In this document: piece after piece, positions 3,737-41,008 of the stretch
How positions within the stretch are numbered: the stretch's first letter is position 1
Layout of the letters: the number at the start of each line of letters is the position of its first letter
Source of the DNA: Candidatus Staskawiczbacteria bacterium
GTDB taxonomy: Bacteria; Patescibacteriota; Minisyncoccia; Minisyncoccales; Staskawiczbacteraceae
DNA length: 47,772 bases
Assembly: GCA_049513595.1 (NCBI GenBank)
Contig: JBEKVX010000002.1
Span: 1-47,772 of the forward strand
Reading direction: 5' to 3'
Made by a program: the position numbers and the translations under genes
The notes under the pieces: model-generated
The model's input: the letters and a program-made list of their open reading frames with translations, nothing else
Database searches by the model: none
What the model was told of the DNA's origin: nothing

Positions 3737-4108
3737 CTATTTTAGCCGCTCGCGCACCCTGTTTACCACATCTTCAATTTTCCAATCAGTTTTGATAAGA
3801 TATTCTCCGAGTCCGTCCATAACTTCTAAGGCCTTCGAGATATCTGTCGGAGAGCTTAAATTGGTCAATATAATTACCGGAGCATGCTTGCCCCATTCAT
3901 CCTGCCTTAATTTTTTAAGCATAGTAAGCCCATCCATTTTAGGCAAAAGGATATCAAGCAATATCAAGTCCGGTTTTGCGGACAACGCAGAAGCAAGGCC
4001 TTCCTCTCCATCCCCCGCTTTTATAATTTCGAATCCTTCTTTGGTAAGATTGTCTGCGAGAGTTGAAAGCAAAATAGGGTCATCCTCCACGATTAAGATT
4101 TTTTTCAT
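3737..4108 (-). CDS. Stand-alone response-regulator receiver (CheY-like, no output domain)
   Basis: KILIVEDD...DLILLDILLPKMDG...PVIILTNL...K pattern (acidic pocket, phospho-Asp, T/S, K). 123 aa. Confidence 0.9.
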   Translation of the reverse strand: MKKILIVEDDPILLSTLADNLTKEGFEIIKAGDGEEGLASALSAKPDLILLDILLPKMDGLTMLKKLRQDEWGKHAPVIILTNLSSPTDISKALEVMDGLGEYLIKTDWKIEDVVNRVRERLK

Positions 4109-14253: not shown

Positions 14254-15255
14254 TTAACGATTAAAAAGGACAATCCCCATCTTATCGCGGACCTTTGCAA
14301 CGGTTTCCGCGATTATAGCGCGCGCTTTTTTGGCGCCGTCATCAAGAACATCCCGGATGTATCCAGTTTGGCTTGCTAACTGCGCGCGTTTTTCTTGAAA
14401 AGGGCCTAGCAGGTCTGCGATACCATCGACAAGTTTGTGCTTGCACTGAACGCAACCAATCTTAGCATGCATGCATGCGCTGGCTATTGCCCTGGTTTCT
14501 GTTTCTCCGGCGGTCACAATTTCATGCACGGGATAGACGGACTTGCAGCGACTGTAAGGATCGCCCGGGTCTGTACTGCGCTTGCGCTGTTCATCGGTGA
14601 TTCCCTTTGCAAGGTACCGCTTGCGGATTTCGTCGATGGGCATGTTGATGTCAATCGCATTGTCGGATTCTGACTTACCCATCTTTTCACCGTCGAGCCC
14701 CGGAATCTTTATCATTTGAGTCATCATCTGGGGCACCATAAAGGTCTCGCCGAAACGGCTGTTAAACTTCCTTGCCAGCGCCTGCGCCATCTCAACATTG
14801 GGCACCTGGTCTGTACCGACGGGAACCAAGGTTGCCCTGGGGCCTAAAATGTCGGCCGCCATCAGAACTGGATAAGTGAGTAATCCCAAGTTGATGTTGT
14901 CGGGATTCTTGCGCACCAGGTCTTTGTAAGTCGGGACTCTCATTAGGTCTCCGACCGGCTGAATCATGCTCAAGTAGAGACAAAGTTCAGCAATATCGGG
15001 AACGCTGGACTGCGCATAGATAATCGACTTCTCAGGATCCAGCCCGGCAGCGATGTAATCCTTCACAATCTCTATTAGGTTGTTGCGGAGTTCCCGGGGA
15101 TCTTGAAGCGTGGTAAGCGTATGCCAGTCAGCGATGAAGTAAAGACATGTGTTGCCCGGCTGCTGAAACTTTACGAAGTTGAGCACCGCTCCAAGAAAAT
15201 TGCCGAAATGCAACCTTCCTGTAGCGCGTATTCCAGAAAGAACGACTTCTGACAT
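14254..15255 (-). CDS. trpS: Tryptophan--tRNA ligase
   Basis: Class I motifs GRLHFGNFLG (HIGH-type) and KMGKS (KMSKS). Start set at ATG 15255 (MSEVVLSG...), 7 nt after GGAGG; the track start at 15297 adds 14 aa. GC-rich relative to flanks. Confidence 0.9.
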   Translation of the reverse strand: MSEVVLSGIRATGRLHFGNFLGAVLNFVKFQQPGNTCLYFIADWHTLTTLQDPRELRNNLIEIVKDYIAAGLDPEKSIIYAQSSVPDIAELCLYLSMIQPVGDLMRVPTYKDLVRKNPDNINLGLLTYPVLMAADILGPRATLVPVGTDQVPNVEMAQALARKFNSRFGETFMVPQMMTQMIKIPGLDGEKMGKSESDNAIDINMPIDEIRKRYLAKGITDEQRKRSTDPGDPYSRCKSVYPVHEIVTAGETETRAIASACMHAKIGCVQCKHKLVDGIADLLGPFQEKRAQLASQTGYIRDVLDDGAKKARAIIAETVAKVRDKMGIVLFNR

Positions 15256-15347
15256 AGTATCGCCTCCGCTAAGGTAGAATGACAATGTACCTGACACACT
15301 AATAGATTACCAATAAAATATATTTACGTCAATATTGACTTTTAGTA

Positions 15348-15375
15348 TTGACTTTATGGTAATAAGTTTTAGTAT
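15348..15375 (+). promoter_or_regulatory. Candidate sigma-70 promoter for the CM::MTase gene
   Basis: TTGACT (15348-15353), a 16-nt spacer, then TAGTAT (15370-15375). A second TTGACT lies 13 nt upstream. Confidence 0.45.
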
Positions 15376-15381
15376 CAATAT

Positions 15382-15405
15382 AGTTGTGTTCGTGAGTTGT
15401 GTTCG
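15382..15405 (+). repeat. Tandem direct repeat in a 5' leader
   Basis: agttgtgttcg at 15382-15392 and again at 15395-15405 (period 13 nt). Confidence 0.9.
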
Positions 15406-15451
15406 AGAACCTTGAAACTTCTAAGGGCAAGAGACACTAAGGAGATATCCG

Positions 15452-16672
15452 ATGTCCACAATCGCGGCTAATGCGAATCCGAGGTTAGATGCGTTGAGAA
15501 TTGACCTTGACAAAACAGACCGGCACATCGTCGGCCTAATGTCAAAAAGGCTCGGCCTGGTCCGCAAGATTGAAGCCGTAAAGTTTGCTAACGGTGAACC
15601 CGTCCTGGTGGAGAAAACCGAACAAGAAAAGTTGGACCGGCTGGCTGCATTCGCAAATGAAAAAGGTCTAAGCATTCCTTTCGTAAGAGGCCTTTTTTAC
15701 AGCTTGTTCTCAGAATCCTGCCGGACCCAGACAAAGCAAAGAGACCAAAGGGACGAGCAGGCATCTGCGGCTGAAGACGAAGAGACGAGATATAAAAGAT
15801 TGAAACAAAATCTTTTAGATCTCACTGAGTTGCTTGTGCCCGAATACAAAGGCACTTACAAACTTTCCTCTTTCGGGACAATTTCGTACTTGGACTTTGA
15901 GCTCGACGCCATAAAGACCCAGGTCAGCACGCTAGCATCTATGGGAAACACCAAGCTGGCAATCGATTTGGGATGTGGCGTCGGAATCGTATCCCTGAGC
16001 GAACATGTAACCCCGTTTTTCGAGCAGGTTAGAGGGTTTGACATCAGCCCCCACATGATAGGCCAGGCGCTCTGGATCAGGAATCTTACTCAAGGAGACG
16101 CCATGCGCGCGTCCTTTGAAGTTCTTGACATCGAGAAAAGATTGCCGCTGGAAGATGGCTCTGTTTCTTTCGTGGCAATGACGCTAGGAACAGCCAGCGA
16201 CGTCAAGAACATCCGAAAGGTTTTGGCATCAATAAGGAGGGTGCTGAATAAGGACGGCCGGTTTGTTCTTTCTTTCTACAACAGTGCTGCGCTGTTTTAC
16301 CGCTGGTCTCTGCCATGGGAAGTCAATCTGATGGCGGAGATAAATCCAACAGACCACTGCCTGGATGTCCACGTTGGAGGCAGGGTCTTCCAACTTTATG
16401 CCAGGCCATACACTGTCAGAGAGGTCAAAAAACTTCTGGCAGACGCGCAACTGCATGTTTCATCCGTCTCTACGTATCCTGCTTTAGCCGCCATCATGCC
16501 AAACGAATTGTTCTATGGCGTAGATGAGGCTCAAAGAGCGTCGCATCGCAAGGAAGTTCAAGCGGCTCTGCTGCAGGAACAAGAAACGAAAAGAACAATC
16601 CAGCGGATTGACAAGGGGCTGGCCGGTTCGGACATGGGCGCGTATATTCTAGTTACGGGCAGGAAAACTTGA
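15452..16672 (+). CDS. Chorismate mutase (AroQ-like) fused to a class I SAM-dependent methyltransferase-fold domain
   Basis: N-terminus LRIDLDKTDRHIVGLMSKRLGLVRKIEAVK... is the CM_2 helix pattern. C-terminus has motif I AIDLGCGVG and FDISPHM. SD AAGGAG lies 7 nt upstream. Confidence 0.75.
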   Translation: MSTIAANANPRLDALRIDLDKTDRHIVGLMSKRLGLVRKIEAVKFANGEPVLVEKTEQEKLDRLAAFANEKGLSIPFVRGLFYSLFSESCRTQTKQRDQRDEQASAAEDEETRYKRLKQNLLDLTELLVPEYKGTYKLSSFGTISYLDFELDAIKTQVSTLASMGNTKLAIDLGCGVGIVSLSEHVTPFFEQVRGFDISPHMIGQALWIRNLTQGDAMRASFEVLDIEKRLPLEDGSVSFVAMTLGTASDVKNIRKVLASIRRVLNKDGRFVLSFYNSAALFYRWSLPWEVNLMAEINPTDHCLDVHVGGRVFQLYARPYTVREVKKLLADAQLHVSSVSTYPALAAIMPNELFYGVDEAQRASHRKEVQAALLQEQETKRTIQRIDKGLAGSDMGAYILVTGRKT

Positions 16673-16696
16673 CAGCGAGCCCTGTTCTGGTAAGAT
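16669..16696 (+). promoter_or_regulatory. Candidate promoter for tRNA-Trp
   Basis: TTGACA (16669-16674, overlapping the TGA stop), a 16-nt spacer, then TAAGAT (16691-16696). Confidence 0.45.
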
Positions 16697-16736
16697 AGTA
16701 TTGTAGTTCCTTTTCCCTTCTGCAACGCAGGAAGGA

Positions 16737-16809
16737 GCCGACGTAGCTCAATTGGCAGAGCATTGGTCTCCAAAACCAAGGGTTGTGGGTTCGATTCCCT
16801 CCGTCGGTG
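16737..16809 (+). tRNA. tRNA-Trp (anticodon CCA)
   Basis: Hand-folded cloverleaf: acceptor GCCGACG/CGTCGGT, D arm GCTC/GAGC, anticodon stem TTGGT/ACCAA with loop CTCCAAA, T arm GTGGG-TTCGATT-CCCTC, discriminator G. CCA is not encoded. Confidence 0.85.
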
Positions 16810-16822
16810 TTTCACAGCGTAT

Positions 16823-16851
16823 GACTCTTCATGATGAAGAGCCTTTTTTTA
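16823..16851 (+). terminator. tRNA-Trp terminator
   Basis: ctcttc-atgat-gaagag followed by a T7 run. Confidence 0.75.
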
Positions 16852-16953
16852 TTCCCAACGCTTACGGCTTTACAGCAATAAAAATTTATGTTAAAATTTA
16901 AATACCAAATAATTTTGTCTGACGAAGCACCTTGAAAGAAAGGATCACGAGTC

Positions 16954-17337
16954 ATGATTTGCGGATTAGCATTTGTCGAAATCGTTGTTAACGATTTTGA
17001 CGCGATGGTTAACTGTTACGTCCAGGAGCTCGGTTTCAAACAAGGAAAAGCAGATAACAACGAAGACGGCCGCTGGTGTCAACTCGTAACTCCTGACGGC
17101 CAGGCCCTCATAGCATTATGGGAGCCATCGGATCCGTTGCAAAAGCCTGACCCTGCCGGAAGAACTCGTCCTTGTTTCTTGCCCATATTTAAGGTTCGGG
17201 ATATCTGTCTGCTTGTGAATAAACTGAAAACAAGCGGAAAGATAAAGATATTGGAAGAAATTAGAAGACGCCCCAAATACTGGATCACTACAATCGCCGA
17301 CCCCGAAGGAAATCATTTACAACTCTACGAAGAATGA
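16954..17337 (+). CDS. VOC (glyoxalase/bleomycin-resistance fold) family protein
   Basis: 127 aa. FVEIVVNDFDAMVNCYVQELGF ... ITTIADPEGNHLQLYE is the typical beta-alpha-beta-beta-beta VOC pattern. Confidence 0.65.
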   Translation: MICGLAFVEIVVNDFDAMVNCYVQELGFKQGKADNNEDGRWCQLVTPDGQALIALWEPSDPLQKPDPAGRTRPCFLPIFKVRDICLLVNKLKTSGKIKILEEIRRRPKYWITTIADPEGNHLQLYEE

Positions 17338-17368
17338 GCCAACAACGTTGGCGACATCTCAATCGCAG

Positions 17369-17393
17369 AACCTCGAATCCTCGAGGTTTTTTT
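17369..17393 (+). terminator. Terminator of the VOC gene
   Basis: aacctcga-atcc-tcgaggtt plus a T-run. Confidence 0.75.
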
Positions 17394-17418
17394 AAATAAA
17401 AAGGAGGCCGGGCCTCCT
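17394..17418 (-). terminator. Terminator of the btpA-like gene
   Basis: aggaggc-cgg-gcctcct, followed on the minus strand by TTTTATTT. Confidence 0.65.
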
Positions 17419-17430
17419 ATGTGATTCGTT

Positions 17431-18258
17431 TTAGATTGTCGCTTTGAAAGTTCTTACAAACTCCGCGACCTTTTGCACGTCGACTTTTTCATGAAAGTCT
17501 TTGAGGTTACGGTTTTGTTTTGGAGAAAGATATTCGCCAGCCTTCAGGGATGTGCTGACAATGATGCAGTCAGCATATTTCATCAGAAGGTCAACGTTTT
17601 CTTTGTTAGCTCCGCTCCCAATGATAATTGGGAAGGAACCTACGGCACCCCGAGCATTAGCGAGCTCGTCGATTTTCGGCGCCTCGCCCGTCCACCTGCC
17701 AGTAATTATCAATCCGTCGGCTCCCGCTCTAATAGCTTGCCGCGCGGATTCTTGGATTGGGCGTGGACGTAGCATTGTCGCGTGCTTGACCTGGATGTCA
17801 GCGAAAATGGCTACTCCTTCTGCCTGGATCTTCTTGCGAAAAGCAGTAACCTGATCCGGAGTACCCAAAATTACGCCGAACTTCGTCTCCACGTCGTCGA
17901 CGAAAACAGGGACTCTCACAAAACGGCCACCAATTACCTTGGCGATTGATAGTGCGGATTCAAAGTCGTTCCACAAAACGCTCACGCCGATCGGGAGACT
18001 TGTGCTCTCCGCTATTTTCTTGCCGAGCACGGTCATCATCTCCGTTGTTTCTGGCGAGACTTTTATCGTGTGTGGAATGTCGTAATTGTTTTCGATGATT
18101 ATCGCATCCACTCCGCCGTCAACAAAAGCCCGCAGGTCAGCGAGTGCTTTCTGTAACATAAAATCCATCCCCGGAAATTCCGGATATCCGATGAGCGGGC
18201 AAAAATGCAGAGCGCCGATAATCGGCCTGTCTGTTCCGAAAATTTTTTTCAGTTCCAT
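17431..18258 (-). CDS. BtpA/SgcQ-family TIM-barrel protein
   Basis: PIIGALHFCPLIGYP...GGVDAIIIENNYDIPH matches the N-terminal signature of the BtpA family (recognised from memory). 275 aa. Confidence 0.75.
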   Translation of the reverse strand: MELKKIFGTDRPIIGALHFCPLIGYPEFPGMDFMLQKALADLRAFVDGGVDAIIIENNYDIPHTIKVSPETTEMMTVLGKKIAESTSLPIGVSVLWNDFESALSIAKVIGGRFVRVPVFVDDVETKFGVILGTPDQVTAFRKKIQAEGVAIFADIQVKHATMLRPRPIQESARQAIRAGADGLIITGRWTGEAPKIDELANARGAVGSFPIIIGSGANKENVDLLMKYADCIIVSTSLKAGEYLSPKQNRNLKDFHEKVDVQKVAEFVRTFKATI

Positions 18259-18448
18259 GATTTTTTCCTTCCCAGGTTTACTAACATGTGCTCGACAATC
18301 GAATTGGTAGTCATAGCCAAAAAATACCGAGGTATTCCGTATCTTTTAGCTATGACCGCCCATTTGTGAATAATTTATATTTAAAAGAACTGATAGGGCC
18401 ACTTTAATACAGATTAAAAAATTTATCAATTCTAAAAAACCTGATGCT

Positions 18449-18973
18449 CTAACTATTTTTGTTTGTCCAGCTCAAAATAGTTTTCGTATTTTTTTTAATC
18501 GTAAAAAAAATTCTTCCGATAATGGCCTGGTGAACTTTGGGATTAGCATTCCCGGATGGATCTTTTATGTCTTTATGATTTTGTGTAAGTTCTGTAAAAA
18601 TGTGCATTTTATTTTTTGCATTAGGAAATTGTTTTATTAAAGAGTTTTTGGCTCCTGAATACACTTTTTTATCCATAGCAATAATTACTGCAGCTTTTTT
18701 GACTGTGGCTGGTGTAATTTTTTGAAAAAGATGATCGGCCAAATCTATATCAAAATTACGCAACGTAGGCCTAGCTGCTTCATATTCATCCGGGTATTCC
18801 TTTAAATTTTTGTGCAATGGCTTTGATGTGCCCATAGTACCCTGCAACCCATATGAAGCTACAGAAAATTTATTATCTAAATTCTTTTCTTGTAGAAATT
18901 TTGCTAAACATTTTTCAGCTATTACAGAACGATGGATATTGCCATTGCATACAAACACAATAATTTTCTTCAT
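18449..18973 (-). CDS. Low-molecular-weight protein-tyrosine-phosphatase-like protein
   Basis: P-loop VCNGNIHRS (CX5R-S) at residues 9-16 and a DP loop (IKDPSG). AT-rich, unlike both neighbours. Confidence 0.8.
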   Translation of the reverse strand: MKKIIVFVCNGNIHRSVIAEKCLAKFLQEKNLDNKFSVASYGLQGTMGTSKPLHKNLKEYPDEYEAARPTLRNFDIDLADHLFQKITPATVKKAAVIIAMDKKVYSGAKNSLIKQFPNAKNKMHIFTELTQNHKDIKDPSGNANPKVHQAIIGRIFFTIKKNTKTILSWTNKNS

Positions 18974-18990
18974 AAAATGATTATACTATA

Positions 18991-19033
18991 AAAAAATAAG
19001 GGTGGAAACCAATCAGACGGCCACCACCCTTTT
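18991..19033 (-). terminator. Terminator of the 746-aa gene
   Basis: Minus strand reads AAAGGGTGG-(18 nt)-CCACCCTT followed by ATTTTTTT. Confidence 0.7.
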
Positions 19034-19045
19034 TGCTCCGACATT

Positions 19046-21286
19046 CTAGTCGAGAACGACGATCTGCCTTGAGACACAATCGAGGATTGCACCGTGAGCA
19101 GAGGCGAGCATTTGGTACATGCTCTCACCACATCCGATGCACGCTGGCATCTGAAGCTCAATCGCCCTAATGCACATGTGCGATGCCGGACCGCCCACCT
19201 TTGTAATAATTCCCGCTGCTCCAGAATGGAATAGGAAATCATACCCTGGGTCTGCGTTCGGCAAAAGCACCAATGCATTCTTAACGTCGGTTTTCACTCT
19301 CTGATGCTCGAGCACGCACACGCGTGCTTTTACAACAGACTTTGTGATATACGACGGATTTGCTTCGGCGAATGTTATCACCCTGAGATCGGTTAAACCA
19401 GGGATAATCACATCCGGTAGCAACACAGGAGGGAAATCATCTTCGCGACTCGCCTTGAGATTGGATGAACCAACCAAGCGAACGTTAAGCTCCTCCCAGC
19501 TCAGGCAAGAAGCATCTTGCCTCGAGATGCCTCGCTGTGCAAGTTGGCGTTTAAGCTTTGTTGCGAAAAGATGTAGCGACTGAGCGAACAGAAACTTCAT
19601 CTGTTCACGGGCCTGCATGAACGTAATGACGTTCTTAAACTCGGCCGTGTCCTCAAATGTATGAGGGCGCTTTTCAAGTTTAACCACCTCCGCCCGTTCC
19701 ATCTGGGCAAAGAGGTAGTTATCTGGATCGTCCGCATAAAACTCGCCGAACACGCTGAATTGCCCAGGGCACAGATGTCCGTATCGCTGCACGAGAGTAT
19801 CGCGAGTGATAACGCCATTGCGACATGCGACTAGATCGGCCCGCATCTGCCCGTTCACAGAGTGAATATGGCCAGCAATCAGGTCGTTCAGACTCTCACG
19901 AGGGTGCATTTCCTCAAACTTGTTCTTCCAGTAGAAAGCGAGTCGCGCCATCCGGACAAACATTTCCGTACCAGTAGCAACATGCTCAAGGATGGTGTTT
20001 AGCGGAGCGTCACCTAAGGATGCTGTACGCTGCTCATAATCTTGAACATCTGCCTCGAAGGTTCCAGAATAGGATTCGGAAACGTTGCGGAAAACGGAAT
20101 CTATACGGACGAAAGCATCTCGCACAACATCCTTGTCGCAGTCATCAAGCCGCGCCTCGGCCATAATTCGCTCAAGTTTATCCCCGACGCTCATCGCATA
20201 CAGGTCGAACTCAACTCGGCTCTGAAGCGACGGGTTCTTTATGAGCTTGTCGCGATAAACGCCAACAATCCGTTCGTAAATCCTATCAGGAATTCCGCAC
20301 GGACGAAAGCTGAACGCCGTTGCCCGCATAGATGCGTATGGCTTTCCTGCCACAACCCTGATCAATCCGATGCCGAGCGGATCATATCCCATATCCCGCC
20401 GCACCTGCTCAACGATTCTGTCGGCGAACAGATGCCTAAATATTGAGATATCGAGTAACGTCGGCGAAGCTCCGAGCAACTCGCGCGGATTGATGTCGAT
20501 CATGTCGCCGAGCACATCTCCGCTAAAATCAACTGTGACAGACGAATTTAGCGACTCAATCCGCCTCAGGATCTTTTTTCCCTGCTCAATTCCAACCGCC
20601 GCAGTTTGCACTGTAGTGATTGGCCGGCATTGCAGGATGTATAACGTGCCTCTCCGGAACGCGAACTCAACATCCAAGCTGGCAGACTGAAAGTGTTGCT
20701 CGATGGCCATCATCGCACCAACGAGATGTTGAAGCCACGCGTCCTTCAAGTCTTCGGGATTTACTCCTCGGACGATCCGAATGAGCTTGCCATTTGAGGC
20801 ACCGCCGACGATGGTTTCACCAGTTCCACTCGAGACTGACACAACATAGTATCCGTCAGGCTCGGCAAGACTGTGTGAGAAAACGACGCCGCTCATATCG
20901 GCCTCAACCATTTCTTGGACAACGACCGATACGCCAGAATCGACAAGTTCAATGCTCCGATTGGCGGCGTAATGAGAAATAACTTCCTCCTTACCCGTAC
21001 CGGAAGCAGAAATCTCGTCGACCGCGACCCGAACGTCATGCACGGTTGCTGGTACGCGAAGTTTCGTTGCGTACATGCCTGCGAACGATGCGTTGGCAGA
21101 GTCTTCCTGAGCCGCACTGCTACGAACTGCGACAGTGCTACCGTTGGGCATTTCGCCCAAGAAGCTATTTATGGCCTCAACAGTTTCGCATTCAGACATC
21201 GTGGGATGCAACACCGTGAACCTAGGAACATTGATCCCGCGAATTTTTGCCAGAATAGCGAGGTTTTCAGCCTTACCGTTTTGCAT
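19046..21286 (-). CDS. PEP-utilizer-superfamily phosphotransferase (ATP-grasp N-terminus, unknown middle domain, C-terminal swivel-His domain)
   Basis: PPDK_N-like VAVRSSAAQEDSANASFAGMY and VVVQEMV. The C-terminal mobile domain has its catalytic His in GGPASHMCIRAIELQMPACIG. SD AGGAGG upstream. Confidence 0.85.
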   Translation of the reverse strand: MQNGKAENLAILAKIRGINVPRFTVLHPTMSECETVEAINSFLGEMPNGSTVAVRSSAAQEDSANASFAGMYATKLRVPATVHDVRVAVDEISASGTGKEEVISHYAANRSIELVDSGVSVVVQEMVEADMSGVVFSHSLAEPDGYYVVSVSSGTGETIVGGASNGKLIRIVRGVNPEDLKDAWLQHLVGAMMAIEQHFQSASLDVEFAFRRGTLYILQCRPITTVQTAAVGIEQGKKILRRIESLNSSVTVDFSGDVLGDMIDINPRELLGASPTLLDISIFRHLFADRIVEQVRRDMGYDPLGIGLIRVVAGKPYASMRATAFSFRPCGIPDRIYERIVGVYRDKLIKNPSLQSRVEFDLYAMSVGDKLERIMAEARLDDCDKDVVRDAFVRIDSVFRNVSESYSGTFEADVQDYEQRTASLGDAPLNTILEHVATGTEMFVRMARLAFYWKNKFEEMHPRESLNDLIAGHIHSVNGQMRADLVACRNGVITRDTLVQRYGHLCPGQFSVFGEFYADDPDNYLFAQMERAEVVKLEKRPHTFEDTAEFKNVITFMQAREQMKFLFAQSLHLFATKLKRQLAQRGISRQDASCLSWEELNVRLVGSSNLKASREDDFPPVLLPDVIIPGLTDLRVITFAEANPSYITKSVVKARVCVLEHQRVKTDVKNALVLLPNADPGYDFLFHSGAAGIITKVGGPASHMCIRAIELQMPACIGCGESMYQMLASAHGAILDCVSRQIVVLD

Positions 21287-21299
21287 GATTTCCTCCTAT

Positions 21300-21585
21300 T
21301 TTCCGATCAAAGAGCTGTTGAGAAGTATCCACAAACGCGCGGATAAAAAAAACTTCTCGTCTCTATGGCGTAAGTAAATTACGCAACAGGGACGAGAAGT
21401 CATCTCGCGGTACCACCCCGATTCCCACCATTATTTTTGGCAGGCGCTTTCATCGACTCCACTTTTTAAAAGTTTTATCGATTATCCTATGATTACGGAG
21501 GAAGCCGGGTTTCCACTGACGCAGAAACCACCTCATCGGGCCCAACCCCCAGCTTGCACCAGGGACCCGAGTCAAAGGTTTTATA
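21300..21585 (-). promoter_or_regulatory. T-box riboswitch leader
   Basis: Minus strand reads ...AAUCGGGGUGGUACCGCGAGAUGACUUCUCGUCCCU... (T-box core at 21405-21420). The antiterminator (GGGG/CCCU, UGGUACC bulge, GCGAGA/UCUCGU) competes with the terminator at 21343-21399. Confidence 0.85.
21343..21399 (-). terminator. T-box expression-platform terminator
   Basis: ACUUCUCGUC ... GACGAGAAGU (10 bp) followed by U8. Confidence 0.85.
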
Positions 21586-21591
21586 ATTTTC

Positions 21592-21630
21592 AATTATAGC
21601 TTATCTTATCACATTAAAAATCCCTGTCAA
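21592..21630 (-). promoter_or_regulatory. Candidate promoter of the T-box leader
   Basis: Minus strand has TTGACA (21625-21630), a 17-nt spacer, then AAGATA. An alternative TATAAT lies at 21592-21597. Confidence 0.5.
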
Positions 21631-21730
21631 GTCTTCACCCAAATTTTTAAAATTTGGGTGAAGATTCAAGAGCCTTAACAAAAAAAGAGCACATTGTGCC
21701 CCTGTCGATGAACAAGCTACAAACATGTTT

Positions 21731-22027
21731 TTACTTCGGGGGTGGCTGTTCGGTTTTGCTGCCAACTCCGGTCGCCCAACCGATATTTATTGTTTGCGGC
21801 CTTTCGTCCAGTCGTGGTTTATATCCAAAACCAGTTCCCCATCCGATTTCTGTGCTGCTGCCCCATTTCCATCCTATCCTGTCTACTTTGCACCCCATGC
21901 AAATACTTATAACCTTACCATCCTCAGTACTATGAGGACAAAAGTTATGTTTACCGTCGCTGTTCATCAGCGGCGATTTTACATGGCAAATCGGACATTC
22001 AACCAGCGTCACTTGCTCGGCGCTCAT
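21731..22027 (-). CDS. Zinc-ribbon protein with Gly/Trp repeats
   Basis: CPIC...CMGC pairs and repeats IGWKWG / IGWGTG / IGWATG. Start moved to MSAEQV (ATG 22027), preceded by AAGGAGAG. Confidence 0.5.
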   Translation of the reverse strand: MSAEQVTLVECPICHVKSPLMNSDGKHNFCPHSTEDGKVISICMGCKVDRIGWKWGSSTEIGWGTGFGYKPRLDERPQTINIGWATGVGSKTEQPPPK

Positions 22028-22184
22028 TTTTGCTCTCTCCTTCTTTTTTTCAATCCGCGAATATTCAGTTTTCAAAGCCGAGAACTGTTCCTGGCGGACT
22101 AACTGTAATTTATAATTTTAAAAAGAAAATGTCAAACAGAAATTGTTTTAATAAATTATTCTATTTTGTTTGCGAAGCTCCGCT

Positions 22185-23183: not shown

Positions 23184-24518
23184 CTATTTTCCCGCCTTTT
23201 CTTTTTTCCAAATAGGGTCGTATATTTTTTTCATTTCCCGCGAATATTCATTAATTTGTTTTTGCAGACAATTTACAAAATTTTCTGCGTCAGGATGCGT
23301 TGGTTTTAAATCTTTGTATTTCTTATGCAAATCCCTGAAAACTTTCGGGTTGTCTATCAGCATGCAAGGCATATATAAATTTTCATTGTACGGCTGGATT
23401 TTCCTGAGTTCTTTGTAAAATGGCTTATCAAGTGCGTCCATAAGTGATATATTTTTTACATTTGCTTGAGAATAGTGCGTAAATATGCAGGGCTCCACAT
23501 CTCCGCTATTATTTACATGAGCATAAAGTTTTCCGGCTATGCATCCACCCACCAGCGGCGCGTCGTTCCAAAAATCAACTGTTAAAATCGGCTTGTTTTT
23601 CCTTATGTTGTCCATTCGTTTTTTTAAATACAATCTTTGTTTCGGGCTTGGCATCAAATCCAAATTTTTGTCACCGCCGACAGGCATATATAAAAAATAC
23701 CATCCCAAAACGCACCCCTTTTTTATCATTAAATCAACAAATTCATCGGAAGCAATTTTTTCAATATTCTTTTTAGTTACACAAACAGAATATCCGTGGG
23801 GTATGCCGTATTTTTGCATTAAATCCATGCCGTCCATAATTTTTTTATAGACGCCCGCTCCCCTTCGCACACTGGTTTCTTCTTCAAATCCTTCTATAGA
23901 AAAAGTGATTCCGACATTTCCCAACTTTGCCAGTTTTTTGCAAATATCATCGTTTACCAAAGTGCCATTTGTATAGACGTGGAAATATGCGTCGGAATGC
24001 TTTTCAAAAATTTTAAAAATATCTTTGTAAACAAGGGGTTCGCCTCCCAAAATTGTAAAAAAAGCCACGCCCATTTCTTTTCCTTCTTTTATAATCCTGT
24101 CAAAAATTTCGAATGGCAAATCGTCTTGCTTCTGATAATTAACAGCATAACATCCGACACATTTTAGATTACATCTCATAGTCGGGGAAATCAGCAAGGT
24201 AAAAAGAGGTGCATGCCCCTGCTTTTCATTTTTTATTCTTAAATCCTGGTTTTTTACAATCCCATTTATTAATAGGTTTTCCAAAACTTTTTTGCGGCAC
24301 TTGCTGTTGACTCCAGCTACTACACGCTTAGTATAAACCAAAGACAAGGGATGAGTTTTAAATAATTCTCTTATTTGTTTAAGAAGTATTTTTGATTCTT
24401 CCGGAACTATTTTTTCCACCAGCTCCGTAATTTTTATTATTCTGTCGTCAGACAAATGAGGCAGAAACCTCACCATTTGATTGATGGACGACGCCTTTAA
24501 TCTCTCTTTTACAGACAT
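23184..24518 (-). CDS. Radical SAM enzyme with a C-terminal SPASM/twitch-like Cys motif
   Basis: CNLKCVGC (CX3CX2C), ILGGEPL, and GGCIAG...GDVEPC...PCM near the C-terminus. An about 110-aa N-terminal extension precedes the core. Confidence 0.85.
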   Translation of the reverse strand: MSVKERLKASSINQMVRFLPHLSDDRIIKITELVEKIVPEESKILLKQIRELFKTHPLSLVYTKRVVAGVNSKCRKKVLENLLINGIVKNQDLRIKNEKQGHAPLFTLLISPTMRCNLKCVGCYAVNYQKQDDLPFEIFDRIIKEGKEMGVAFFTILGGEPLVYKDIFKIFEKHSDAYFHVYTNGTLVNDDICKKLAKLGNVGITFSIEGFEEETSVRRGAGVYKKIMDGMDLMQKYGIPHGYSVCVTKKNIEKIASDEFVDLMIKKGCVLGWYFLYMPVGGDKNLDLMPSPKQRLYLKKRMDNIRKNKPILTVDFWNDAPLVGGCIAGKLYAHVNNSGDVEPCIFTHYSQANVKNISLMDALDKPFYKELRKIQPYNENLYMPCMLIDNPKVFRDLHKKYKDLKPTHPDAENFVNCLQKQINEYSREMKKIYDPIWKKEKAGK

Positions 24519-24573: not shown

Positions 24574-25926
24574 TCAAACCGCAGCTCTTTCTGATTTTTT
24601 TTGACAATCGCATTCCTTTTTTATTGGAATATTTTTTATAATTTCGCTTGTCAATTTTTTTAATTTGTCTATATTTTTAGCAAAGTTTGCAAGGACTTGT
24701 TCAATTGAAACAGGGCTTATTTTTGATTTTGCGTAAATTCCGACATCGTAATCGGTAACCAAAGAGATATTTAAATAGCAAATGCCCAGCTCTAAAGCTA
24801 AAATCGCTTCCGGATACTGAGTCATGTTAACCACATCCCACCCCATTTTAGAAAACCACAAACTTTCTGCCAAAGTTGAAAATTTCGGCCCTTCAATCAC
24901 CACCACAGTCCCCTTGGCGTGCACAGGAAGTTTTAATTTTTTTGCCTGGCTGATTGCAATTTTTCTTAATTCTGGACAATAAGGATAAGCGGCTTCAATG
25001 TGATTGACTTTTGGGCCGTCGAAAAAAGTGTCTTCGCGCATTTTTGTCCTGTCAACAAACTGATCGCAAATTACAAAATCGCCCGGCTTAATTTTTGTTT
25101 TTATAGAACCCACTGAAGCCGGGGCAATTATTCTTTCAACCCCAATTTCTTTTAAAGCAGCGATGTTAGCTTTGTAATTAATTTTGTGCGGCGGAATTTT
25201 GTGGTCTCTGCCGTGCCGCGGCAAAAAAGCAACTTTTTTCCCAAAAACAGTCCCGATGGTAATTTTATCGCTCGGCAGACCAAATTTTGTTTTTATTTCA
25301 ATTTCTTTGGCATCCTTATCAAAAAACTTATAAAATCCGGAGCCGCCGATTATTCCGATTTCCGCCAGCTTTTCTGTCTCAGCGGGCTTTGAATACGTGG
25401 TATATTTTGCTAAAGACCTTATTTTATATCCTTTTATTTTTTTTCTTCCCTTCAAATAAGTTAATTCCATTAAAAAATCAATTCCGACAATTTTCCCCTT
25501 AAGTTTTTCAACCATATCTATTGTCGAGCGCATCGTTCCGCCGGTAGCTAAAACATCGTCTACTAAAATTACTTTTTCTCCGGGCAGAATTGAATCCAGG
25601 TGCATTTCAAGAACATTGCTGGCATACTCAAGAGAATAATTTTTTGAAATTGTTTTGAAGGGTAATTTTCCTTTTTTTCTGACGATAACCAATCCTGTAT
25701 TTAATTTATATGCCAGTGCAGCAGCAAAAATAAAACCCCTGGCATCAATTCCGACAATCTTGTCAATTTTTTTACCAATGTAAGGAGTAGCTAAAACATC
25801 AATTAACTCGCCGAATATTTTTTTATTTTGGAGCAAAGGAGTAATATCTTTAAAACTTACTCCTTTTTGGGGCCAGTCAGATATTTCCCTTACGTTTGAT
25901 TTAATTAATTTTTCTATATGGTCCAT
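24574..25926 (-). CDS. Fusion of adenine phosphoribosyltransferase and 5'-methylthioadenosine phosphorylase
   Basis: APRT half has the PRPP loop VILVDDVLATGGTM. MTAP half has IGIIGGSGFY, FLPRHGRDH, VNMTQYPEA and VTDYD. Start set to ATG 25926 (MDHIEKL) after AAGGAAAT; the track start is 19 aa longer. Confidence 0.85.
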   Translation of the reverse strand: MDHIEKLIKSNVREISDWPQKGVSFKDITPLLQNKKIFGELIDVLATPYIGKKIDKIVGIDARGFIFAAALAYKLNTGLVIVRKKGKLPFKTISKNYSLEYASNVLEMHLDSILPGEKVILVDDVLATGGTMRSTIDMVEKLKGKIVGIDFLMELTYLKGRKKIKGYKIRSLAKYTTYSKPAETEKLAEIGIIGGSGFYKFFDKDAKEIEIKTKFGLPSDKITIGTVFGKKVAFLPRHGRDHKIPPHKINYKANIAALKEIGVERIIAPASVGSIKTKIKPGDFVICDQFVDRTKMREDTFFDGPKVNHIEAAYPYCPELRKIAISQAKKLKLPVHAKGTVVVIEGPKFSTLAESLWFSKMGWDVVNMTQYPEAILALELGICYLNISLVTDYDVGIYAKSKISPVSIEQVLANFAKNIDKLKKLTSEIIKNIPIKKECDCQKKSERAAV

Positions 25927-26140
25927 ATATTTCCTTATTTTCCATTTTATTCTTTTAAAATAAAAATGCAACCAAAAAACCACCTCAATTAAAAGATGGC
26001 TGAAAAAAGCGCGGGTGGCGTGCCGGTTCCCGAACTTTTGAATAGAAAAAAGCCCTTCCTATTCCTGAGCTGGCGGTTAAGAAAATCAATCAATTGTTAG
26101 CTTTAATTTAGATTTACCCTACCGCGTGATTCAATATGCT

Positions 26141-28215: not shown

Positions 28216-28482
28216 TCAATAACGAGGATACCTTCTCCAATGCCCACGCACCCAATATGCTCCGCCAAGAAGCGGTATATCTCCGATTCCATCAGTCATA
28301 GCACCCACTATAATAAGAACATATAAAGCAATGACGATTATCGATAGCCATTTAATTATGTGCCAAAATTTCTCTTTTGGAGAGCGTGGATTCTGAGGCG
28401 TAGAATTTCCTTCTGCAGAATACCCTATCACTAATCCAACTACTGCAATTATTAAAGGATAAAAAATTGTATAATCATCCAT
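28216..28482 (-). CDS. Small two-TM membrane protein
   Basis: 88 aa with two hydrophobic helices. Packed 30 nt upstream of the Shedu gene. Confidence 0.45.
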   Translation of the reverse strand: MDDYTIFYPLIIAVVGLVIGYSAEGNSTPQNPRSPKEKFWHIIKWLSIIVIALYVLIIVGAMTDGIGDIPLLGGAYWVRGHWRRYPRY

Positions 28483-28493
28483 AAATTTATTTT

Positions 28494-29126
28494 TTATTTC
28501 ATTTGTGGCTTACCGGCATCGCCAAGTTTTTTGTTGAGTGCATCTCTCTTCTCTTGAATTTTTTGCTTCTGAACAAAATAAAAATCGAATAAACTTTCTA
28601 AAATATCTAAATTCCATTCTGCTTCTCCTGGCTCTACATCGACTATTTCTCCAGTACTTTTGCTCTTTATTGGATGAGCAGCAAAATTGCCTATATTCCG
28701 AACCGCATCTAAGTTTTCCGAAAGATATGGGGGTAAAGAATTTGAATTTAAAACTTCTTCAATTTGTTCAGATAAATCTTTTTTTGTAGTATTAGCTTTT
28801 TCCTTAAGTAAATTTTGTAAGCACCTTCTACTTAATGCGGCGCTAGCTTTTGGGCTGTCAGAAAAAACTAAACACGCCTCCCTGTAATCTTCAGTAAAAG
28901 CGGGCGGTATATCTGAAGGTAACGGTGTTCTTGAAATTCCTTTTGGCCTTACTAGCTCAGGGCTCCAAACACGATATCCGGTTGGAAGCTTGCCCAACTC
29001 AATTATAACTTTTTTGCAACTCGGACAAGTGCAATAACGCAAGCGAAAATTTCCCTCAATATCTGTAAGGGTTGTAATGTGCGCCCAATCCTCAAAAAAA
29101 TTTTCTAAACAATGTGGACATTTCAT
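28494..29126 (-). CDS. Zinc-ribbon plus DUF4145 protein
   Basis: CPHC...CPSC ribbon at the N-terminus. DUF4145-like AALSRRCLQNLL...LDAVRNIGNFAAHP. Confidence 0.65.
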   Translation of the reverse strand: MKCPHCLENFFEDWAHITTLTDIEGNFRLRYCTCPSCKKVIIELGKLPTGYRVWSPELVRPKGISRTPLPSDIPPAFTEDYREACLVFSDSPKASAALSRRCLQNLLKEKANTTKKDLSEQIEEVLNSNSLPPYLSENLDAVRNIGNFAAHPIKSKSTGEIVDVEPGEAEWNLDILESLFDFYFVQKQKIQEKRDALNKKLGDAGKPQMK

Positions 29127-29134
29127 AATTTTTA

Positions 29135-29758
29135 TTAAAACTTAATTGATGTAGCAATATTTTTTATATCTTTTAAAACTGTACTACTCGGATTCCATGG
29201 AAGATATGTACTAAGTATTAAAATTGCTTTCTCTCCATTTGTATTCATCATATATACAAAATCATAGGTTCTCATACTAGATTTTTTTATAAATCCCTTT
29301 ATGCAAATAGCGAAGCCAGAATTATTCTCAAAAATTTCGAACCCACCATCCTTCTCCCAACCAGCACCCCTAATGCCTTTGTGAAAAAATAATAACATGT
29401 CTGAAAGTGCCGATGTTACAATTTTTTTCGGTTCTTCTATGGCGACTATATTTTTATATTCAGATTTTTTTATTTCACCCTCAAGATTCCATAAAACATC
29501 CCCGTTTTCTAAAAACATTGGAAAATCTTTAATTTTAAAAATCTGTACCATACCAGCAGGACTATATTGGCTTGAGCTGTCTTCCGCAGAAAAAGACATA
29601 TCGCAATATTTATTTGCCATGAAGTTAATCAATGGACTTGTATACCAATCCATATCAGTATTTTCAAAAGAAATTACATATGGATATTTCTTACCCTTAT
29701 ATTGAAGTTTGTTTAGCTTCTTATTAAATCTTCTTTGAATAAAATTTAGTTTTGCCAT
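29135..29758 (-). CDS. Hypothetical protein (first gene of the Shedu cassette)
   Basis: 207-aa ORF with no motif I recognise. Its stop is 8 nt from the next start. Confidence 0.5.
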   Translation of the reverse strand: MAKLNFIQRRFNKKLNKLQYKGKKYPYVISFENTDMDWYTSPLINFMANKYCDMSFSAEDSSSQYSPAGMVQIFKIKDFPMFLENGDVLWNLEGEIKKSEYKNIVAIEEPKKIVTSALSDMLLFFHKGIRGAGWEKDGGFEIFENNSGFAICIKGFIKKSSMRTYDFVYMMNTNGEKAILILSTYLPWNPSSTVLKDIKNIATSIKF

Positions 29759-29919
29759 ATTTTTAAAAAATTAATATTTAACGCAAAAACGCCCAAAAAT
29801 TGGGCGGTGGAATTTGAACTAAAAATAGTCGGGGAAGTGCCGAGAAGTGTCATAACTTCTGGTCGCACATGCGTTATTTACAATAACTTACGACTAAAAG
29901 TTCTAACATGTGCATCAGG

Positions 29920-29995
29920 CGCGGGCAGGGGGATTTGAACCCCCGATCTCCTCCGTGACAGGGAGGCGTCTTAAACCAGGCTGGACTATGCCCGC
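29920..29995 (-). tRNA. tRNA-Asp (anticodon GTC)
   Basis: Acceptor GCGGGCA/TGCCCGC, anticodon arm CCTCC-CTGTCAC-GGAGG, T arm GGGGG-TTCAAAT-CCCCC, discriminator G. Confidence 0.85.
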
Positions 29996-30011
29996 AAAAT
30001 TATTTTCGGGG

Positions 30012-30085
30012 TGCCGGGGGAGAGAATCGGACTCTCGACCTCTGCGTTATGAGTGCAGCGCTCTTACCAACTGAGCTACCCCGGC
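30012..30085 (-). tRNA. tRNA with anticodon CAT (elongator Met or lysidine-Ile2)
   Basis: Acceptor GCCGGGG/CCCCGGC, anticodon loop CTCATAA, T arm GAGAG-TCCGATT-CTCTC, discriminator A. Confidence 0.8.
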
Positions 30086-30099
30086 GTTAAAATTTAAAA

Positions 30100-30173
30100 T
30101 GGTTGCGCCGCCCCGAATTGCACGGGGGCCTGCAGCTTATGAGACTGCCGAGGTACTACTCCTCCACGGCGCG
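30100..30173 (-). tRNA. tRNA with anticodon CAT, initiator-like (C1-A72 mismatch), CCA encoded
   Basis: Acceptor CGCGCCG/CGGCGCA (position 1-72 unpaired C/A), anticodon loop CTCATAA, T arm CCCCG-TGCAATT-CGGGG, 3' ACCA present. It lacks the three G-C pairs typical of initiator anticodon stems. Confidence 0.7.
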
Positions 30174-33201: not shown

Positions 33202-33660
33202 TCATGGCCGGGGTTCCAAATCTTCCGGCCTGATTTTGTCGATCGACAGATCAGGGTCGCCCGACGAATCGAGCAAGCGCCGCCAATCGGCTCTGCTTTC
33301 GTCATCCCCTCTTTTGCATTCGGCCTCGCGCTGGCATTTGATGCAACGAGTGGCGTACGGCAGGGCGTCGAGGCGGGCCATAGGAATGTTGGTCCCGCAA
33401 TCCTCGCAAATGCCGAAGCTGCCTTCCCGCATCCGCTCAAGGGCCTCTTCAATGCGGGCCAACTCGCGGTCCTCCACTTCGGCCAGTTGAGAGCTAATCT
33501 CATCCTGGACAGAATCCAGGGCCGAGTCAACCGCGTCCCCAGGTGGCTGCCCACGGAGCTCTTTTAGCAAGCTCAAGTCGCCAGCCAAAGCCCGGCGCAG
33601 GGCTTCACGTCGCCTAACGAGGACCTGGCGAATGTTCAAAATCATATCTTTCCGGCTCAT
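33202..33660 (-). CDS. DksA/TraR-family C4 zinc-finger protein
   Basis: CEDCGTNIPMARLDALPYATRCIKC. Start set at ATG 33660 (MSRKDM) after AAGGAGG. A sampled line (33421-33480) is 65% GC. Confidence 0.75.
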   Translation of the reverse strand: MSRKDMILNIRQVLVRRREALRRALAGDLSLLKELRGQPPGDAVDSALDSVQDEISSQLAEVEDRELARIEEALERMREGSFGICEDCGTNIPMARLDALPYATRCIKCQREAECKRGDDESRADWRRLLDSSGDPDLSIDKIRPEDLEPRP

Positions 33661-33837
33661 ACTATCGCCTCCTTGACATAGGGCCCAATATACAAGAATC
33701 AAAGATCAACATTTACCCTCACACCAAATTTTGGTTGTGACGGGCAAATTTGATTTTAATACTTTTCCGAACTTTGTCAATATACACGCTCCAATCAAAA
33801 AAGCCCGCTTTCGCGAACTTTTTTCATAAAATTATTT

Positions 33838-41003: not shown

Positions 41004-41008
41004 GTTGT

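Follow-up and report, generated by a model that had tools for sequence, protein, structure and literature searches.

A predicted tRNA-Trp T-box with a short Stem I precedes a dikinase-phosphatase operon in a Candidatus Staskawiczbacteria genome and belongs to a leader class of CPR bacteria

The genome of Candidatus Staskawiczbacteria bacterium (GenBank assembly GCA_049513595.1), a member of the candidate phyla radiation (CPR; Patescibacteriota), carries on contig JBEKVX010000002.1 a leader RNA directly upstream of a gene for a 746-residue enzyme with ATP-grasp and swivel-histidine domains. We analysed this leader and its surroundings in a stretch of 47,772 nucleotides (the window, to which all coordinates given without a locus label refer; leader elements on the minus strand are written 5' to 3', and labels such as L002 denote loci used for comparison). 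We consider it very likely that the leader is a transcription-attenuating T-box responding to tRNA-Trp, that it belongs to a large CPR class scoring below the Rfam threshold, and that it switches on an operon encoding the dikinase (PEPut), a low-molecular-weight phosphatase (LMWPc) and a BtpA-family protein.

The element covers 21584-21385 on the minus strand, the full span of the Rfam T-box model RF00230 in a local scan, and is matched by a class-specific nhmmer profile with an E value of 1e-64. An earlier note, made from the letters of this DNA, had read here a T-box of the antiterminator/terminator type, and the folds agree with its drawing. The RNA quoted there, AAUCGGGGUGGUACCGCGAGAUGACUUCUCGUCCCU, corresponds to 21423-21388. 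Within it, the antiterminator (21419-21388; -12.3 kcal/mol as folded) is made of helix A1, which pairs GGGG (21419-21416) with CCCU (21391-21388), and helix A2, which pairs GCGAGA (21408-21403) with UCUCGU (21397-21392) and has a G·U pair at its base; the 7-nt T-box bulge UGGUACC (21415-21409) lies between them. The intrinsic terminator (21401-21345) consists of a hairpin at 21401-21351 and a run of eight U at 21352-21345. Its hairpin has a predicted stability of -27.8 kcal/mol (z = -8.6, with none of 200 shuffled sequences equally stable) and shares the 3' strand of the antiterminator, so that the two folds are mutually exclusive, as had been proposed. The 746-codon open reading frame (ORF) starts further along the same strand, at the ATG 21286, behind the Shine-Dalgarno sequence AGGAGG (21297-21292), also as described. 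Because the latter comes some 50 nt after the U-run and is not part of the switch, a sequestrator design does not apply.

A sigma-70-like promoter is predicted at 21630-21603 (minus strand), with the -35 element TTGACA (21630-21625), a 16-nt spacer and the extended -10 element TG-TAAGAT (TAAGAT, 21608-21603), which would place the transcription start near 21596. Comparable promoters precede 83 of 113 related leaders listed, against 8 of 97 control segments. Since the promoter is directly upstream of the element, here as in most of the related leaders counted, the T-box is expected to lie within the transcript; a start downstream of the T-box core, which the note had named as a way for its reading to fail, is not where the predicted promoter points.

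The 5' half of the leader is less conventional. A short Stem I (21579-21530) folds, and its helices 1-3 covary. It begins with a K-turn, CC-UUU-GA (21578-21572) opposite GA-GG (21534-21531), that aligns to the GA motif of RF00230. Above this, a lower helix pairs UCGGG (21570-21566) with CCCGA (21540-21536), extending to 5-6 bp in the minimum-energy fold, and an upper helix of 7 bp (21564-21558 with 21553-21547) carries a GCAA loop. The bulge GUUGGG (21546-21541) between the two helices contains UGG (21544-21542) and the purine G 21541. The AG bulge and the distal-loop platform, which bind the tRNA elbow, are both missing from this Stem I. Stem II, GGUUUC...GAAACC (21529-21508), is placed by the RF00230 alignment, and its conserved top, CUGC...AGUGG, is a candidate S-turn. 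Stem IIA/B (21507-21485) comprises the IIA pairing of CGG with CCG, the F-box CCGUAA (21498-21493) and the IIB pseudoknot of UCCU (21502-21499) with AGGA (21488-21485). Fold and covariation both support a linker hairpin (21482-21452) leading to Stem III (21444-21424), which folds between the purine flanks GAAAG (5') and an invariant AA (3'). Two motifs that had been taken for parts of a rearranged Stem I are explained differently by this structure: the segment GGUGCAA is no conserved distal-loop motif, since its sequence is unconstrained and 5 of 19 close relatives lack it altogether, and GAUGAGG is the 3' strand of the K-turn.

Rfam applied at its gathering threshold reports no T-box in the window, only an RNase P RNA and three tRNAs. 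Run locally in E-value mode, RF00230 matches 21584-21385 (minus strand) significantly over model positions 1-219, with 58.9 bits and E = 2.7e-12, its gathering score being 93 bits. The other way to failure named in the note, the lack of a significant RF00230 match, therefore does not apply. The covariance model aligns the K-turn, Stem II, Stem IIA with the F-box, Stem III and the T-box sequence, and 27 nt of Stem I take the place of 76 model positions; we attribute the sub-threshold score to a Stem I without the distal tRNA-elbow platform. None of 21 leaders from 20 related loci reached the gathering score. The features that define T-boxes are otherwise present, namely the UGGNACC bulge, a mutually exclusive terminator, the G·U pair at the base of A2, the purine flanks of Stem III, Stem II and IIA/B with the F-box, the K-turn, a specifier followed by a purine, and pairing between the fourth bulge base and the discriminator; the elbow platform and a curated-threshold Rfam score are the two that are lacking. 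Of two traits of the actinobacterial ileS class, the element has one, the loss of the platform with retention of the Stem II domain, but not the other, a sequestered Shine-Dalgarno sequence without a terminator. Judged by its sequence, the window element is a genuine T-box of a short-stemmed type not previously described, from CPR bacteria. The word 'canonical' used in the earlier note is apt for the 3' discriminator half only, and its remark that Stem I is not canonical stands.

Homologues of the 746-residue protein occur almost only in metagenome-assembled genomes of Patescibacteria/CPR. An nhmmer leader profile built from the window and searched against 21 GTDB-representative loci with such a homologue located leaders immediately 5' of the orthologous gene in L002 (Giovannonibacteria), L007 (Moraniibacteriota), L008 (where a contig end interrupts the leader) and L009, L010 and L012 (Paceibacterota). 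The juxtaposition of a T-box with an ATP-grasp and swivel-histidine enzyme, first pointed out for the window, is thus conserved in other genomes. Of 22 loci, just 2 had the motif when the canonical T-box sequence was sought with a strict regular expression; the diverged copies came to light with the profile. A scan of metagenome contigs for the Stem II/IIA block, whose conserved sequence is CTGCNNNAGTGGNNNNNCGGNNNYYTCCGTWA, gave at least 120 loci; because this set was selected by a pattern derived from the class itself, its regulon proportions are descriptive and do not amount to a census. L012 has two T-boxes, at 3547-3845 (minus) and 9640-9926 (plus); one of them, the second copy, precedes a gene for a small zinc-ribbon protein. 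Their 3' halves, discriminator and terminator, are near-identical and their Stem I regions and downstream genes differ, which suggests a recent duplication or recombination.

We assessed covariation in an alignment of 19 close relatives that share the K-turn layout of the window (alignment A2, distinct from helix A2). For the antiterminator-state structure, 92.0% of cells hold standard pairs, compared with 41-60% when partners are slid by 1-3 columns, both sides change in 26 of 51 pairs, and none of 500 shuffles matches the observed values. Compensatory change is found in every helix that varies: the lower and upper helices of Stem I, Stem II (helix 4; 100% paired, three pairs altered on both sides), the linker hairpin (helix 7; three pairs) and Stem III (helix 8; 7 of 7 pairs). 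Helices 5 and 6, which correspond to Stem IIA and the IIB pseudoknot, do not vary in this alignment; in L009 and L010, the pseudoknot reads CCCU/GGGG in place of UCCU/AGGA. The G·U pair at the base of the A2 helix is present in all 19 sequences, the AA after Stem III (columns A162 and A163) is invariant, and so is the UGGNACC bulge except at position N. The terminator covaries as well: its pairs form in 95.6% of cells, and in 10 of the 18 both partners have changed. At least 56 of 92 listed leaders have a stable hairpin, of -12 kcal/mol or below, and then a U-run, 50-60 nt past the T-box bulge. Other members of the class have a three-way junction instead of the K-turn kept in the 19. The upper helix of Stem I is variable or, in the five relatives already mentioned, absent, and in L062, L079, L080, L085 and L140 its loss leaves UAGAUGGG or UAAAUGGG as the terminal loop, an 'ultrashort' form with an apical specifier. 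Given that relatives without the upper helix exist, the upper hairpin of the window, GGUGCAA included, is probably dispensable. By this comparative evidence, the leaders are one coherent, selected RNA class missed by standard annotation.

Comparison also places the specifier. Alignment columns U41, G42, G43, G44 and C45 (window 21544-21540) are invariant and the helices on either side covary, and among 118 non-redundant leaders listed, at least 100 have NUGGG in the bulge of Stem I. On this conservation, the specifier is UGG (Trp) at 21544-21542, in the conserved bulge of Stem I. The note had left the assignment open among three candidates, all of which prove to be outside Stem I: UGG-A (about 21515-21512) belongs to the 3' strand of Stem II, GUC-A (about 21520-21517) to the Stem II loop, and AUC-A (about 21493-21490) follows the F-box. 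The genes that follow the listed leaders, called by a simple longest-ORF rule, encode GCS2-like carboxylate-amine ligases (14 leaders), TrpB-like pyridoxal-phosphate enzymes (12; TIGR01415, above its cut-off), the PEPut family (10), tryptophanyl-tRNA synthetase (TrpRS; 9), TrpD-related proteins (7) and anthranilate synthase I (TrpE; 2), the remainder being small zinc-ribbon proteins and genes without an assigned family.

Another register of the same bulge would make the leader sense a different tRNA, through UUG (Leu) followed by G, or through GGG (Gly). With U 21565 and G 21541 paired, the last four unpaired nucleotides are UUGG, the usual layout of codon plus purine; L007 has CUG, also a Leu codon, at this place; and a variant bulge found before SerA-like genes reads UCG in that register. 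We nevertheless regard a specifier for anything other than Trp as highly improbable. The base preceding UGG is free among the listed leaders (U in 79, A in 10, G in 8 and C in 3), so that a shift of register would put Leu, Met or Val codons before genes of the same kinds, and a Leu (YUG) register, which the window and L007 suggest between them, was rejected on the AUGGG and GUGGG leaders and on a regulon composed of Trp genes. The discriminator base is A73 in tRNA-Leu and U73 in tRNA-Gly, and the fourth bulge base of the class fits G73 instead. Orthologues of the regulated gene moreover have leader peptides with tandem Trp codons, described below. The variant itself, UUCGGG, was seen in L051 (about 2650-2760), L074, L098, L037 and L077, with a SerA-like dehydrogenase gene following in L051, L074 and L098; its specifier is likely UCG (Ser), in a register shifted by one base, CGG (Arg) being the alternative.

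The discriminator end of the switch bears on the same question. The predicted ligand, tRNA-Trp, is encoded at 16737-16809 on the plus strand, with anticodon CCA, a G1·U72 pair, G73 and no encoded CCA end. The earlier note had correctly read G73 in this tRNA, 4.6 kb from the leader; it had gone on to argue that a UGGU bulge predicts an A73 tRNA and so speaks against Trp, and here the class says otherwise. The fourth bulge base is C in 53 and U in 43 of the listed leaders, never A or G, and eight of nine CPR tRNA-Trp genes have G73, usually together with G1·U72, the discriminator of the ninth (L073) being unreadable in the ARAGORN output. These genes come from a set in which tRNA-Trp is over-represented (11 of 61 tRNA gene calls in the fetched loci); two of the 11 calls are the window's own gene, counted in L001 and in the window, so that the distinct genes number ten, of which nine belong to CPR loci. 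Loci with a G73 tRNA-Trp have UGGU T-boxes (L035, L108 and the window) as well as UGGC T-boxes (L007, L042 and L053). As C and U both pair with G, UGGU is compatible with the nearby tRNA-Trp, and TBDB allows wobble at the fourth bulge position (PMC7778990). We predict that U 21412 faces G73 of the window tRNA-Trp as a G·U wobble pair. The proteobacterial tRNA-Trp in L019 has A1-U72, unlike the G1·U72 of CPR genes.

Independent support for Trp comes from orthologous loci that have no T-box. In nine of them (L003-L006, L013, L015, L016, L018 and L019), a leader ORF 16-29 residues long, with two or three Trp codons in a row (WW or WWW), precedes the PEPut orthologue, for example MKSNRSIISLNWWWALQ..., ...TSWWWR-stop and ...APGWWR-stop. 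The hosts are other CPR bacteria (L003-L006, L013 and L015) and Alphaproteobacteria/Proteobacteria (L016, L018 and L019). Two further WW/WWW leaders turned up among loci from an exact protein look-up (L146/L147 and L148/L149), and the leader of L145 is degenerate, with a single W. A terminator-like hairpin overlaps the WW-R-stop of L018, and a promoter immediately precedes the leader ORF of L005, whose attenuator terminator, with a loop of more than 8 nt, was missed by the simple terminator scan. No tandem-Trp leader ORF was found in the T-box loci among the genome loci examined, nor in the window. Because two unrelated sensors of Trp-tRNA supply control one orthologous family, the T-box is read as specific for Trp and PEPut as a gene of Trp starvation. 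In setting the target apart from biosynthesis genes, the earlier note was right that it is an ATP-grasp and swivel-histidine enzyme, but to exclude biosynthesis was premature for a gene that appears to be regulated by Trp starvation through two mechanisms; the family may belong to Trp supply. Sequence and comparison together establish how the RNA is built, that it is specific for Trp and that its association with the gene is conserved.

The gene that follows the leader encodes PEPut (21286-19046, minus strand), with an N-terminal ATP-grasp domain (PPDK_N), a helical central domain and a C-terminal swivel-histidine domain containing His703. The catalytic His703 and the ATP-grasp residues are invariant. 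The confident AlphaFold model (mean predicted local distance difference test score, pLDDT, 82.9) finds its best full-length fold match in the PDB in rifampin phosphotransferase (5HV1, E 3.6e-21); by sequence, PDB relatives exist only for the ATP-grasp and His domains and none for the central domain. A search of PEPut for the phosphoenolpyruvate (PEP)/pyruvate-binding TIM barrel (PEP-utilizers_C), which is C-terminal in PEP synthase and pyruvate phosphate dikinase, was negative, PPDK_N and the mobile His domain being the only domains detected. PEPut shares with rifampin phosphotransferase (RPH-Lm, 5HV1), PigC and phenylphosphate synthase the order of ATP-grasp, helical substrate domain and C-terminal swivel-histidine domain. 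It differs from rifampin phosphotransferase in having about 15% sequence identity to it and a constant phosphatase partner, so that only fold and domain order agree. Its scores against the two rifampin phosphotransferase equivalogs are 62.9 bits for NF041857 (cut-off 999) and 41.8 bits for NF000283 (cut-off 1700), and those against PEP synthase equivalogs are likewise far under the cut-offs. NF004508 (PRK05849, 'hypothetical protein'), its nearest NCBIfam, matches residues 3-745 with 354.7 bits (E 8.8e-106); as its cut-off is 501, we place PEPut in a related but distinct subfamily.

The second gene (18973-18449, minus strand) encodes LMWPc, with the motif CNGNIHRS, a conserved partner of the dikinase, and the third (18258-17431, minus strand) a TIM-barrel protein assigned by domain matches to the BtpA/SgcQ family. 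No terminator-like site was found in the two intergenic gaps between PEPut, LMWPc and BtpA, and the operon ends behind BtpA in a strong terminator (17418-17402, minus strand), with a stem of 7 pairs, of which 5 are G-C, and then TTTTATTT. Across the loci examined, PEPut is always accompanied by a phosphatase gene, on its 3' side except in L146 and L147, where it is 5'. The phosphatase is LMWPc in some lineages and a histidine phosphatase with an RHG motif in others, Proteobacteria among them, and this non-orthologous replacement argues that the pairing of kinase and phosphatase is functional. An M20 or AstE/AspA-type deacylase is also often present. BtpA occurs elsewhere 3' of a TrpD-like gene and a PfkB kinase gene, under the same kind of T-box, and we take such operons with TrpD-related genes under T-box(Trp) control to tie the BtpA family to tryptophan metabolism. 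T-box(Trp) operons with a TrpD-related gene followed by BtpA were noted in L045, L073, L101 and L128, that of L073 also including a PfkB kinase gene.

These elements combine into a model in which tRNA binding and antitermination are what we infer from the RNA. Transcription would initiate near 21596, and the nascent RNA would form a Stem I made of the K-turn, a short helix, a side bulge displaying UGG and G, and a dispensable upper hairpin, with no elbow platform. The anticodon CCA of tRNA-Trp would presumably be held by the specifier, Stem II and the IIA/B pseudoknot, as in actinobacterial ileS leaders; the K-turn, Stem II and the pseudoknot probably provide extra affinity in place of the platform. 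The G73-C-C-A end of an uncharged tRNA would pair with UGGU through one U·G wobble and three Watson-Crick pairs, favouring the weak antiterminator and hence read-through, and a charged Trp-tRNA would be unable to pair, so that transcription would stop at the run of eight U. Read-through would yield one operon of PEPut, LMWPc and BtpA, ending at the 17418-17402 terminator.

Several points weigh against this account. Every step of it derives from sequence, and the Rfam score is under the curated threshold of the family. The base after the specifier is G and not the usual A, and G 21541 can pair with U 21565; the exact register was fixed by comparison and not by a structure, and the minority UUCGGG variant before SerA-like genes fits UCG if the register is moved by one base. 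The orthologous loci L143, which has no leader, and L014 (44% identical) show neither type of leader, as does the distant L021 (25% identical). Finally, transcriptional T-boxes generally need a long Stem I with the elbow-binding motif (PMC7583486), so that a transcriptional T-box without a platform might work poorly. Taken to its end, this last point would make the leader a decayed or non-switching relic, in which tRNA capture is too slow and the terminator is constitutive or bypassed, or in which control is translational. The sub-threshold score is in keeping with such a relic, and so is the published view that transcriptional T-boxes cannot do without the elbow-binding motif (PMC7583486), but more than 100 members keep all other T-box elements, with compensatory changes that extend to the terminator, and retain the invariant G·U sensor pair and the AA after Stem III; purifying selection on such a scale would be unexpected in a relic, and the position of the Shine-Dalgarno sequence, outside the switch, does not suit translational control. 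We consider this explanation very unlikely and prefer a functional T-box that attenuates transcription.

What the operon does is less certain. Our leading suggestion, held tentatively and at slightly less than even confidence, is that the kinase and phosphatase form a route of Trp supply or salvage that is turned on when charging of tRNA-Trp drops. It is favoured because BtpA, TrpD-like, TrpB-like and PfkB proteins share the regulon and because a phosphatase always accompanies the kinase. Three specific roles were considered, namely a serine kinase feeding an O-phosphoserine-dependent TrpB2 and an indole-3-glycerol kinase for PEPut, and a phosphohistidine phosphatase regulating the swivel domain for the phosphatase; direct support was found for none of them.

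The genes around the operon enter into this question. A TrpRS of a kind we call type A (14254-15297, minus strand) and CM_MT, a fusion of a chorismate-mutase-like domain with an S-adenosylmethionine (SAM)-dependent methyltransferase (15452-16672, plus strand), travel with the module: the pair is syntenic in L002, L006, L007, L009, L010, L044, L123, L125 and L146, where it adjoins either the PEPut-phosphatase operon or a T-box-controlled GCS2-AstE operon. Type A TrpRS is 62-75% identical across CPR lineages and 30-38% identical to the T-box-regulated TrpRS. The block at 14.2-21.7 kb (14254-21700) has a G+C content at third codon positions (GC3) of 0.54-0.57, against 0.25-0.40 in the flanks, the exceptions within it being the glyoxalase gene (0.46) and LMWPc (0.26, host-like). 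This difference suggests a horizontally acquired island in which one gene has been replaced. Homologues of TrpB, TrpD, TrpE and GCS2 were not found within reach in the window and the 21 genome loci.

Such an island could also be read as an inducible detoxification or resistance operon, in which a TrpRS inhibitor or a Trp antimetabolite lowers charging, the T-box, or in relatives the WW leader peptide, turns on an inactivating kinase, and the co-travelling second TrpRS is the resistant enzyme. Streptomyces coelicolor offers a parallel: its trpRS1 encodes an indolmycin-resistant TrpRS and is induced through a Trp-codon attenuator. The best structural match of PEPut is an antibiotic-inactivating kinase, the island is compositionally foreign, the module travels with its own tRNA-Trp and the distinct type A TrpRS, a gene of the glyoxalase/bleomycin-resistance fold adjoins it, and the regulon also contains GNAT-like and deacylase genes. 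A constant phosphatase partner is, however, hard to reconcile with inactivation by phosphorylation, and the BtpA operons with TrpD-like and PfkB genes elsewhere look metabolic. PADLOC defence models gave no match for the operon proteins, no resistance family was matched either, and PEPut falls far short of the rifampin phosphotransferase equivalog cut-off given above. We judge resistance a serious rival, though on balance unlikely, and keep Trp supply or salvage as the preferred function. A broader proposal spans both: CPR bacteria and some Proteobacteria would carry a horizontally mobile 'tryptophan-stress module', in which a T-box or WW sensor of tRNA-Trp charging is joined to the dikinase-phosphatase pair and accompanied by a second TrpRS, a tRNA-Trp and CM_MT, and which would serve an undescribed Trp salvage or the neutralization of TrpRS inhibitors. 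We put this forward as a possibility, at less than even confidence.

Other observations on these loci concern the same gene families. TrpRS comes in two distinct types, type A linked to CM_MT and type B regulated by T-boxes, and a CPR contig of 4.8 kb (L042, 1-4816) has three TrpRS genes around a T-box-controlled GCS2-AstE operon. The operon in which a GCS2-like ligase gene is followed by an AstE/AspA-like deacylase gene recurs under T-box(Trp) leaders in L028, L032, L042, L044, L076, L123, L125 and L141, often beside type A TrpRS and CM_MT, and looks like an alternative partner to the kinase-phosphatase operon. Upstream of the T-box in the window, an ORF of 114 residues (21731-22075, minus strand) encodes a zinc-ribbon protein with CxxC/CxxC and repeated IGW motifs, and has its own terminator at 21703-21685. 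Small zinc-ribbon genes come first after T-box(Trp) leaders in the second copy of L012 and in L080, L085 and L126; a second T-box was looked for in the 420-nt gap upstream of the ORF at 21731-22075 and was not found there.

The window has several further features of note. The RNase P RNA (41006-41358, minus strand) is a reduced bacterial class A RNA (121.6 bits), with model positions of about 135-180 missing and several helices mismatched. A Shedu-type gene with an SduA_C domain (PF14082; 27124-28185, minus strand) is preceded on the same strand by small ORFs (28216-29758), one with a DUF4145 domain, just downstream of a tRNA-Asp/Met/Met cluster (29918-30173). A lone ORF of 166 residues (33202-33702, minus strand) has a G+C content of 0.58 and a GC3 of 0.64 in a region of about 0.33 G+C. 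Finally, a gene at 24574-25983 (minus strand) fuses a phosphoribosyltransferase to a purine/uridine nucleoside phosphorylase (Pribosyltran and PNP_UDP_1), with a radical SAM gene (23184-24518) just downstream on the same strand.

Set beside known T-boxes, the CPR class shares most with Class I transcriptional T-boxes (RF00230; Bacillus subtilis tyrS and glyQS): the K-turn, a specifier followed by a purine, Stem II, Stem IIA/B with the F-box, the purine flanks of Stem III, the 7-nt UGGNACC bulge, the G·U sensor pair, and a competing terminator with its U-run. It differs from them in lacking the distal platform of interdigitated T-loops that stacks on the tRNA elbow, in scoring below threshold and in having G after the codon. 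In Actinobacteria, the ileS T-boxes that act on translation (Sherwood et al. 2015; Nocardia farcinica, 6UFM) have an intermediate or ultrashort Stem I, for which Stem II and IIA/B compensate in affinity (PMC7583486). The CPR leaders resemble these in having no elbow platform and in keeping the K-turn, Stem II and IIA/B, probably in a compensating role, and the likeness extends to the apical-loop specifier of L062, L079, L080, L085 and L140; in contrast to them, the CPR class has a terminator in place of a sequestrator, is specific for Trp and not Ile, and mostly has targets other than aminoacyl-tRNA synthetases. Firmicutes Trp T-boxes (trpS, the trp operon, rtpA for anti-TRAP and trpX; PMC9382623) likewise have a UGG specifier, respond to uncharged tRNA-Trp and control genes of Trp supply, but theirs is a long Stem I, and their known regulons cover biosynthesis, transport and the synthetase, with no dikinase of the PEP-utilizer type paired with a phosphatase. 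Attenuators of the trpL type, used by the orthologues, read the same Trp-tRNA signal by another mechanism, translation of tandem Trp codons as opposed to direct tRNA binding.

Reported hosts of T-boxes are Firmicutes, Actinobacteria, Chloroflexi, Deinococcus-Thermus and Geobacter, CPR/Patescibacteria not being among them (PMC3766115), and a limited literature search, which does not prove absence, found no paper on T-boxes in CPR/Patescibacteria or on PRK05849. A class of more than 100 members in which an intrinsic terminator goes together with a short or ultrashort Stem I departs from the view that transcriptional T-boxes call for a long Stem I with the platform and that a short one accompanies translational control in Actinobacteria (PMC7583486). 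As part of the broader proposal above, the class would show that tRNA can be sensed co-transcriptionally without the elbow platform.

CPR bacteria are reduced and host-dependent, and are generally reported to lack most amino-acid biosynthesis. Because the class is invisible at the Rfam threshold, T-box regulation in their genomes is probably under-annotated. Its Trp regulon provides a defined list of genes with which CPR bacteria may meet tryptophan shortage: TrpB-like and TrpD-like enzymes, BtpA with PfkB, the GCS2-like ligase with the AstE-like deacylase, and the dikinase with its phosphatase. One orthologous dikinase family, currently annotated only as 'pyruvate phosphate dikinase' or 'hypothetical', is found behind two unrelated kinds of Trp-sensing leader; this is strong guilt by association, and PEPut would be a new, uncharacterised addition to the T-box regulon.

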